In this document: piece by piece, positions 18,993 to 19,196 of the stretch
Numbering within the stretch: position 1 is the first letter of the stretch
Layout: each line of letters opens with the position of its first letter
The notes under the pieces: generated by a model
Told to the model about the DNA's origin: nothing
What the model saw: the letters and a program-made list of their open reading frames with translations, nothing else
The model's database searches: none
Made by a program: the position numbers and the translations under genes
Origin: Escherichia coli
GTDB lineage: Bacteria; Pseudomonadota; Gammaproteobacteria; Enterobacterales; Enterobacteriaceae
DNA: 64,000 bases
NCBI RefSeq assembly: GCF_003334765.1
Contig: NZ_QOWT01000004.1
Strand: one strand, 5' to 3'

Positions 18993-19196
18993 AATTCCTC
19001 CTTGCGGTCACAAATCTCCGTCGCCTGTACACGACCCAATAATACTTTGTACAATATACGCTAAAATTGTACAAAGTATAAATAAGATTTCAGCTAAATT
19101 GGATGAAACATTATTTTTAATGTGGATTAAATTTAAACGTAACGTATTCATTTTCACGATGATTTACTGAAATCATGTGAAAGAATGTGCTGAAAA

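Follow-up and report, generated by a model that had tools for sequence, protein, structure and literature searches.

A conserved TGTACA palindrome on the bluR promoter of Escherichia coli, a putative operator of the MlrA/BluR family

The bluR locus and its promoter

The window, the whole stretch of 64,000 nucleotides of Escherichia coli DNA that was analysed, contains the E. coli gene region bluR-bluF-ycgZ-ymgA-ariR. The coding sequence of bluR (ycgE; bluR is the RefSeq name) occupies 18261..18992 on the minus strand, begins with a GTG start codon and specifies a MerR-family repressor with the Pfam domains MlrA_helical and MlrA_C; bluF lies on the same strand and ends at 19197. Adding 1,195,067 to a window coordinate gives the position in MG1655 (NC_000913.3), and across the 6 kb compared the two sequences differ only at 20667. 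BluR, BluF and the YcgZ-YmgAB proteins connect blue light, cold and starvation with the Rcs system, curli and colanic acid.

Primer extension has located the 5' end of the bluR transcript 54 nt ahead of the start codon, and the transcription of the gene, which depends on sigma-70 RNA polymerase, is independent of that of bluF (Tschowri et al. 2012, PMC3509220). Counted from the start codon at 18992, this distance places the transcription start site at 19046 on the minus strand, with a possible error of 1 nt. A promoter scan finds TTTATA-18-TATATT at 19082..19053 on the minus strand, ending at -7. The -10 hexamer TATATT (19053..19058, minus strand; -12 to -7) fits the published start site; the candidate -35 hexamer TTTATA (19077..19082, minus strand) is a match to the consensus only, and it overlaps the outer edge of the distal arm of the palindrome described below. 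Just past bluF there is also an imperfect hairpin (19146-19170; CACATGATTTCAGTAAATCATCGTG on the minus strand), maybe a 3' structure of bluF, several stem and loop positions of which differ among the five E. coli strains that we aligned.

The inverted repeat

Reading of the sequence and a repeat search both reveal a perfect inverted repeat between bluF and bluR, with two arms of 14 nt each, ATACTTTGTACAAT (19042-19055) and ATTGTACAAAGTAT (19066-19079), on either side of a 10-nt spacer ATACGCTAAA (19056..19065; all given on the plus strand). The promoter-proximal arm carries a TGTACA core at 19048-19053, i.e. -7 to -2 of the bluR promoter, and the promoter-distal arm carries the second core at 19068-19073 (-27 to -22); the spacer includes part of the -10 hexamer. 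The original prediction had described a perfect palindrome with arms of 13 nt (19043-19078): the perfect palindrome stands, but the true perfect arms are 14 nt long. The element with the 13-nt arms lies 51-86 nt upstream of the start codon, in agreement with the distance that had been claimed.

With the 5' end 54 nt before the start codon, the +1 position at 19046 falls inside the proximal arm, and the palindrome as a whole extends from -33 to +5 of the bluR promoter, with its dyad centre at about -14.5. Since it thereby covers both the TATATT -10 hexamer and the start site, occupancy of the palindrome should block RNA polymerase, i.e. repress bluR. The two half-sites are exact copies of TGTACA, spaced 20 bp from start to start (N14). 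The sequence between them in E. coli, ATTTTAGCGTATAT, is AT-rich and lacks an A-tract, and the outer flanks read ATACTT.

Such an arrangement is not expected by chance. Two inverted repeats in the 64-kb window have perfect arms of 14 nt or more and a loop no longer than 20 nt, and 60 randomised windows (first-order Markov) contain none. The pattern TGTACA-N5-25-TGTACA has only two matches in the 64 kb, which overlap and are both at the bluR palindrome, compared with an expectation of 0.08. The hexamer itself occurs 12 times in the window, against 12.2 expected by chance; the signal therefore resides in the pairing and position of the hexamers and not in the hexamer alone.

The original prediction also included a third TGTACA (19026-19031), placed further upstream. 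This is correct on the plus strand only: relative to bluR the hexamer lies downstream of the palindrome, in the bluR 5' UTR at +16 to +21 of the mapped transcript. TGTAGA stands in its place in UTI89 and ATCC 25922, the two B2-type strains compared, and in other genera the hexamer aligns with a sequence other than TGTACA, at the place where a TAnnnT block stands. Being conserved neither within E. coli nor between genera, it was rejected as a part of the operator.

Two other repeats in the window deserve mention. At 22033-22068, about 100 nt past ymgC and before pdeG, two arms of 15 nt form a perfect inverted repeat (GTCAAGAATGGAGAG-N6-CTCTCCATTCTTGAC), which is nested inside a wider repeat (ATATCAGGTG...CGCCTGATAT) and has no T-run directly after it. 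A perfect 26-bp palindrome with zero spacer (AAAATCCACGCAA|TTGCGTGGATTTT) is located at 61572-61597.

Conservation within E. coli and between genera

We aligned five E. coli strains chosen to span the diversity of the species (the strain of the window, UTI89, CREC-544, RIVM_C037134 and ATCC 25922). Both arms of the palindrome are invariant in these strains, which differ at 16 of 401 flanking positions, and the sole variable positions of the element are two of the ten in its spacer. The bluR locus is present in 4976 of 5426 complete E. coli genomes. As a rough measure, given that clades are not independent, the exact palindrome 38-mer is found in 4595 of the 4976 locus-bearing genomes, compared with 3516 and 3502 for exact matches to the 38-mers on its intergenic and UTR flanks, respectively. 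In ATCC 25922 bluF is annotated as frameshifted (a pseudogene), and bluR and the palindrome arms are intact.

Orthologous loci were collected by a scan of species-representative genomes and by exact look-ups of BluR homologues. The order of the ycgZ-like genes, bluF and bluR is kept at all loci except for two from Erwiniaceae. The pattern TGTACA-N11-14-TGTACA precedes the bluR start codon by 60-85 nt in 11 other genera (degenerate in two of the 11), the position of the proximal hexamer ranging from -59 to -70 relative to the start codon (-59 to -66 where both hexamers are exact) and that of the distal one being about -80. Of the 17 loci from outside E. coli that were aligned or listed, 13 keep the distal hexamer. 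The N14 spacing belongs to E. coli. The spacing is N13 in Citrobacter (five species), Kluyvera georgiana, Scandinavium and Dryocola, N12 in Klebsiella pneumoniae, Cedecea and Pectobacterium, and N11 in Superficieibacter and Silvania; counted per locus, N13 occurs at six loci and N11 at two. The degenerate forms are TGTACA-N13-TATACA in Pseudocitrobacter and TATACA-N7-TGTACA in Lelliottia. Upstream of bluR in Kluyvera ascorbata the TGTACA pair is absent.

When 16 sequences are aligned with MAFFT, near-invariance within the surrounding 70 nt, upstream of the putative -10, is confined to the two (T)TGTACA blocks. The conservation across Enterobacteriaceae that had been proposed as a check supports the prediction: the hexamer pair is kept before bluR in the 11 other genera, with diverged flanks. 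In most genera the spacer of the orthologous site is rich in A (Pectobacterium has GTAAAAAAAATT, Superficieibacter ATAAAAAAACT and Erwinia ACCAAAAAAATCT), as is the spacer ATAAAAACCAAA of the csgD operator. The E. coli spacer has lost its A-tract and has gained TATATT.

The core promoter likewise differs between genera. In 10 of 11 genera, E. coli and Citrobacter not counted, the proximal TTGTAC is followed at a distance of exactly 17 nt by a TAnnnT block (mostly TAGTTT), and none of the promoters of these bluR loci reaches the threshold of the consensus scan. This suggests a weak promoter in the other genera, in which the proximal half-site TTGTAC would serve as the -35 element and the pair would be centred near -41. 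E. coli carries the third TGTACA where the others carry TAnnnT, and uses the TATATT inside the spacer instead. Given a probable TAnnnT-based promoter elsewhere, repression is predicted for E. coli only, where it rests on a single primer-extension result.

Comparison with known operators

The closest known counterpart lies at the same locus. At the ycgZ promoter a DNase I footprint of BluR covers TGTAC...GTACA, complemented by EMSA and lacZ mutants: point mutations in the half-sites abolish binding of BluR and de-repress ycgZ::lacZ, and BluR also binds the MlrA-dependent csgD promoter, with lower affinity (PMC3509220). In the window this operator is found at 20647..20665 on the plus strand and reads TGTACA-CATATTT-CGTACA (N7). 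It shares with the bluR palindrome the (T)GTACA half-site, the locus, the regulon and an overlap with the core promoter that fits repression by occlusion, and the DNA-binding domain footprinted there is that of the presumed binder at bluR. In contrast to the ycgZ site, for which binding of BluR is proven, the bluR palindrome is a predicted site known from its sequence. The ycgZ promoter is sigma-S dependent, with the operator on the -35 element and the promoter spacer, whereas that of bluR is a sigma-70 promoter, with the palindrome on the spacer, the -10 element and +1.

A further difference concerns the spacing of the half-sites. The ycgZ promoters possess TGTACA-N7-8-YGTACA in all 16 loci checked and the long spacing in none, compared with N14 at bluR in E. 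coli and N11-14 elsewhere. As the ycgZ operator is always of the N7-8 kind, the bluR-proximal pair represents a different architecture from the validated BluR operator, and N14 and N7 are roughly half a turn of the helix apart, so that one dimer geometry cannot suit the two. This discrepancy is the main unexplained point. One possible way out, that the long pair consists of two tandem ycgZ-type operators with N7-8 partners, was rejected as a general solution: an N7 partner half-site beside the long pair is found only in E. coli (CGTATA), Lelliottia (TATACA) and Erwinia (CGTACA).

The one nucleotide by which the window departs from MG1655 falls next to the ycgZ operator: position 20667 is T here and G in MG1655, 2 nt 3' of the CGTACA half-site, in the context CGTACAATTTT here and CGTACAAGTTT in MG1655, and it could alter the affinity of BluR or the promoter spacer. 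Furthermore, a lone TGTACA occurs 93-98 bp upstream of the ycgZ operator, on the bluF side, in 13 of 16 loci. E. coli has TGTATA (20552-20557) at the same offset of 95 bp, within TTGTATAGA, which is RcdA-box-like according to the RcdA paper; the offset is 106 bp in Klebsiella, and Pseudocitrobacter differs. A fixed offset of this size, about nine turns of the helix, could reflect DNA looping from one BluR site to another or else a site of the bluF promoter.

The csgD operator of MlrA was described by Ogasawara et al. 2010, as quoted in later papers. The quoted forms are AAAGTTGTACA(12N)TGCACAATTTT (PMC3509220) and AAAATTGTACA(12N)TGTACAATTTT (PMC9662190), and the original prediction had cited the operator correctly. 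On the csgD strand of K-12 it reads AAAATTGTGCA-ATAAAAACCAAA-TGTACAACTTT, with N12 and an A-rich spacer. Like the bluR palindrome it comprises inverted TGTACA-type half-sites separated by a gap of more than one helical turn. The A-rich spacer of csgD recurs in most orthologous bluR sites, unlike in E. coli bluR, where the gap is N14 instead of N12 and the outer flanks are ATACT-T instead of AAAR-T; moreover, the csgD site is an activating one far upstream, whereas the bluR palindrome lies on the core promoter. The proteins themselves are closely similar in the part that meets the DNA: in a 10-protein alignment, residues 4-40 of the DNA-binding domain are identical in all aligned BluR orthologues and in the Erwiniaceae proteins, and a 20-residue stretch of this domain is identical in E. 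coli MlrA, too.

Compared with the classical operators of the MerR family (MerR, SoxR), the common feature is a dyad site by which a MerR-family protein would control its own gene. The classical sites are approximately 18-22 bp long and centred in an over-long spacer of 19-20 bp between -35 and -10, usually within a divergent promoter pair. The bluR palindrome, in contrast, comprises 38 bp, is centred at about -14.5 on a promoter with an 18-bp spacer, extends past +1 and is not part of a divergent pairing with a target gene.

A putative autoregulatory operator and its alternatives

The position of the palindrome, the identity of its half-sites with footprinted ones and the phylogenetic footprint support the original proposal of either a BluR autoregulatory operator or a site of cross-regulation by MlrA, and they make it likely that the element is a functional site of the MlrA/BluR family. 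We infer from them that a protein binds here, which protein this is and with what sign it acts. To the more specific reading, i.e. an operator of bluR that is bound chiefly by BluR (and possibly by MlrA) and represses bluR in E. coli, we assign a probability of roughly 0.6. One winged-helix domain of a dimer would occupy each TGTACA hexamer, and the bound BluR, or possibly MlrA, would occlude the core promoter, resulting in negative autoregulation of bluR. With BluR as the occupant, light-activated BluF, which pulls BluR off DNA, would de-repress bluR as well and thereby replenish the repressor, so that the pathway of blue light, cold and biofilm would be under homeostatic feedback. MlrA, with its identical recognition helix, may bind as well. 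Several observations sit uneasily with this reading: the only validated operator of BluR is of the N7-8 kind compared with N14 at bluR, BluR binds the long-type csgD site weakly (PMC3509220), and across genera the gap between the half-sites covers a range of 3 bp, an unusual feature if the dimer is rigid.

MlrA is a sigma-S-dependent activator of csgD under the control of c-di-GMP, and the sequence evidence does not discriminate between BluR and MlrA as the putative binder. If the site belonged to MlrA and not to BluR, MlrA would bind an operator of its long type, would by its position repress bluR and would thus couple curli to the BluR/Ymg/Rcs module. The architecture is indeed that of the footprinted csgD operator, with N12 and an A-rich spacer; among the orthologous bluR sites those of Klebsiella, Cedecea and Pectobacterium share the N12 spacing, most genera have an A-rich spacer, and the bluR site is unlike BluR's own validated N7 operator. 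However, the E. coli site itself, with N14 and without an A-tract, matches csgD no better than ycgZ. The pair accompanies bluR in every genus, in addition to the gene at the mlrA position in Pantoea and Erwinia, which points to self-regulation, and it has been lost from the true mlrA genes of Enterobacteriaceae. Moreover, MlrA is known solely as an activator that acts from far upstream. Exclusive ownership by MlrA is therefore unlikely in our view.

Slightly less probable still is that the hexamers are kept for reasons unconnected with either regulator, as promoter elements (TTGTAC as -35; TACAAT or TACAAA as -10) or as the target of an unrelated factor such as a GntR-type regulator reading TTGTACAA, RcdA, SrsR or H-NS. 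The TAnnnT block 17 nt past the proximal TTGTAC in most genera would suit a promoter, and the scan also finds CTGAAA-16-TACAAT on the minus strand. A -35 role, however, explains the proximal hexamer only and not the identical second one 17-20 bp upstream, and the same hexamer is a proven contact of BluR at ycgZ (PMC3509220). In genomic SELEX the bluF-bluR spacer gave signals for RpoD holoenzyme, H-NS and SrsR; those of RpoD holoenzyme and H-NS are compatible with a promoter there. RcdA binds TTGTnnACA boxes in the neighbouring ycgF-ycgZ spacer, but TTGTACAA does not fit this box, TTGTACAAT and TTGTACAAA fail it as well, and the SELEX and footprints of RcdA concern the ycgF-ycgZ spacer, the bluF-bluR spacer not having been reported in its SELEX; an RcdA box was accordingly rejected. 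For SrsR a SELEX peak in the bluR-ycgF spacer has been described, but the box named by its authors is located inside bluF, about 400 bp away (PMC9181523). Both SrsR and sigma-54 were rejected as factors acting on the palindrome, the SrsR box and the sigma-54 site lying inside bluF at about 19471-19487. Two studies thus point to the same 17 nt: the sequence TTGGCGCAGGTTTTGCT on the minus strand of 19471-19487 has been published as an intragenic binding site of sigma-54 that faces bluR (PMC4591121), and it contains the SrsR box gCAGgTTTTGC, which has been assigned to the regulation of bluR (PMC9181523).

Finally, the palindrome might act in RNA, as a hairpin that terminates or stabilises the bluF message in read-through transcripts, an explanation that we regard as very improbable. 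The palindrome lies on the bluF strand, 118 nt past the stop codon of that gene; the 91-nt region has a folding energy of -21.9 kcal/mol (z = -2.9), and a 14-bp stem is present in both the minimum free energy and the centroid structure. The stem, however, is A/U-rich, lacks a U-run and is followed by the tail UAUUGGGUCG; a terminator scan finds none here. Arm length and spacing are not conserved across genera, whereas the hexamers are, and in Superficieibacter a canonical terminator past bluF lies upstream of the pair and separate from it. Moreover, bluR mRNA is unable to fold into the stem, its 5' end lying within the proximal arm. The missing U-run and scan match, the start site within the stem and the absence of stem conservation led us to reject a terminator or RNA hairpin.

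Previous knowledge and significance

The RefSeq record of K-12 contains no feature at the palindrome, and no mention of it was found in the literature searched, which agrees with the original statement that it is not annotated. Neither autoregulation of BluR nor the bluR palindrome is mentioned in PMC3509220, the BluR/OmpF study, the SELEX overview, the TF-titration library or the MarA/ycgZ study. A literature search for BluR autoregulation, ChIP, DAP-seq, SELEX and iModulon yielded nothing usable (Tschowri et al. 2009, Genes Dev, was outside its scope), and in PPTP-seq, a genome-wide perturbation screen that scores autoregulation, the bluR guide RNA was lost. The palindrome is thus most likely a new site, previously unreported as far as we could find.

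To our knowledge, the published BluR circuit contains no feedback on BluR itself. If BluR occupies the operator, a negative feedback would be added: when BluF strips BluR from the DNA, more BluR would be made, and the response would be limited and reset. If MlrA binds as well, the operator would connect the c-di-GMP/MlrA/CsgD module directly with that of BluR. The N7 and N11-14 sites together provide a natural spacing series for understanding how a MerR-like dimer reads half-sites that are half a helical turn apart.

History of the operator in the MlrA/BluR family

The two Erwiniaceae loci are of particular interest for the origin of the site. The BluR-like genes of Pantoea alhagi and Erwinia (3001-3750 of their loci) occupy the chromosomal position of mlrA without an adjacent bluF, and their neighbours are a yehW/X/Y-type ABC transporter and yohO. 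The encoded proteins are 65-66% identical to E. coli BluR and 53-55% to E. coli MlrA, a pattern that would arise either if MlrA of Enterobacteriaceae diverged fast after the duplication or if bluR came from an Erwiniaceae-like copy. In both Pantoea and Erwinia, TGTACA-N13-TGTACA precedes the start codon of the gene at the mlrA position. Since the pair is present at this gene, too, a site at the regulator's own gene seems to be an ancestral trait of the family.

Upstream of E. coli mlrA there is no matching pair, only TGCACA and an A-tract at -82, and the pair is likewise absent from the mlrA genes of Salmonella, Enterobacter, Raoultella and Dryocola. What is found at about -82 of these five mlrA genes is a remnant, one half-site (TGCACA, TGTACA or TGCATA) followed by AAAAAC, and the same genes keep a TAAAGT/TACAGT block, the counterpart in the alignment of TAnnnT at the bluR loci. 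It therefore seems that the family originally had a site at the regulator's own promoter and that mlrA of Enterobacteriaceae has lost part of it.

These patterns invite a broader and rather speculative scenario, in which the MlrA/BluR family would use two classes of operators with one DNA-binding domain, the long class being an ancient autoregulatory one that predates the duplication. The short class would tentatively be TGTACA-N7-8-TGTACA at ycgZ, and the long class, with as much reservation, TGTACA-N11-14-TGTACA, its spacer rich in A, as seen at csgD and before the gene of the regulator itself. The scenario is based on the retention of the long pair at bluR and at the Erwiniaceae gene in the mlrA position, on the decay to a single half-site with an A-tract at mlrA of Enterobacteriaceae, and on a promoter that moved around a fixed operator. 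In most genera the pair near -41 would be in a class-II-like position compatible with positive autoregulation; in E. coli the new -10 within the spacer would have put the pair at -14.5, making repression obligate.

The block GTTAGTTTAG (TAnnnT), about 17 nt after the proximal TTGTAC in loci L010, L011, L014, L016, L019-L021 and L024, is followed by a GACGTATCRGG-like sequence in the presumed 5' UTR. A homologous block CGTCTAAAGTTA occurs upstream of true mlrA genes; the conserved TAnnnT block is probably the ancestral -10 region.
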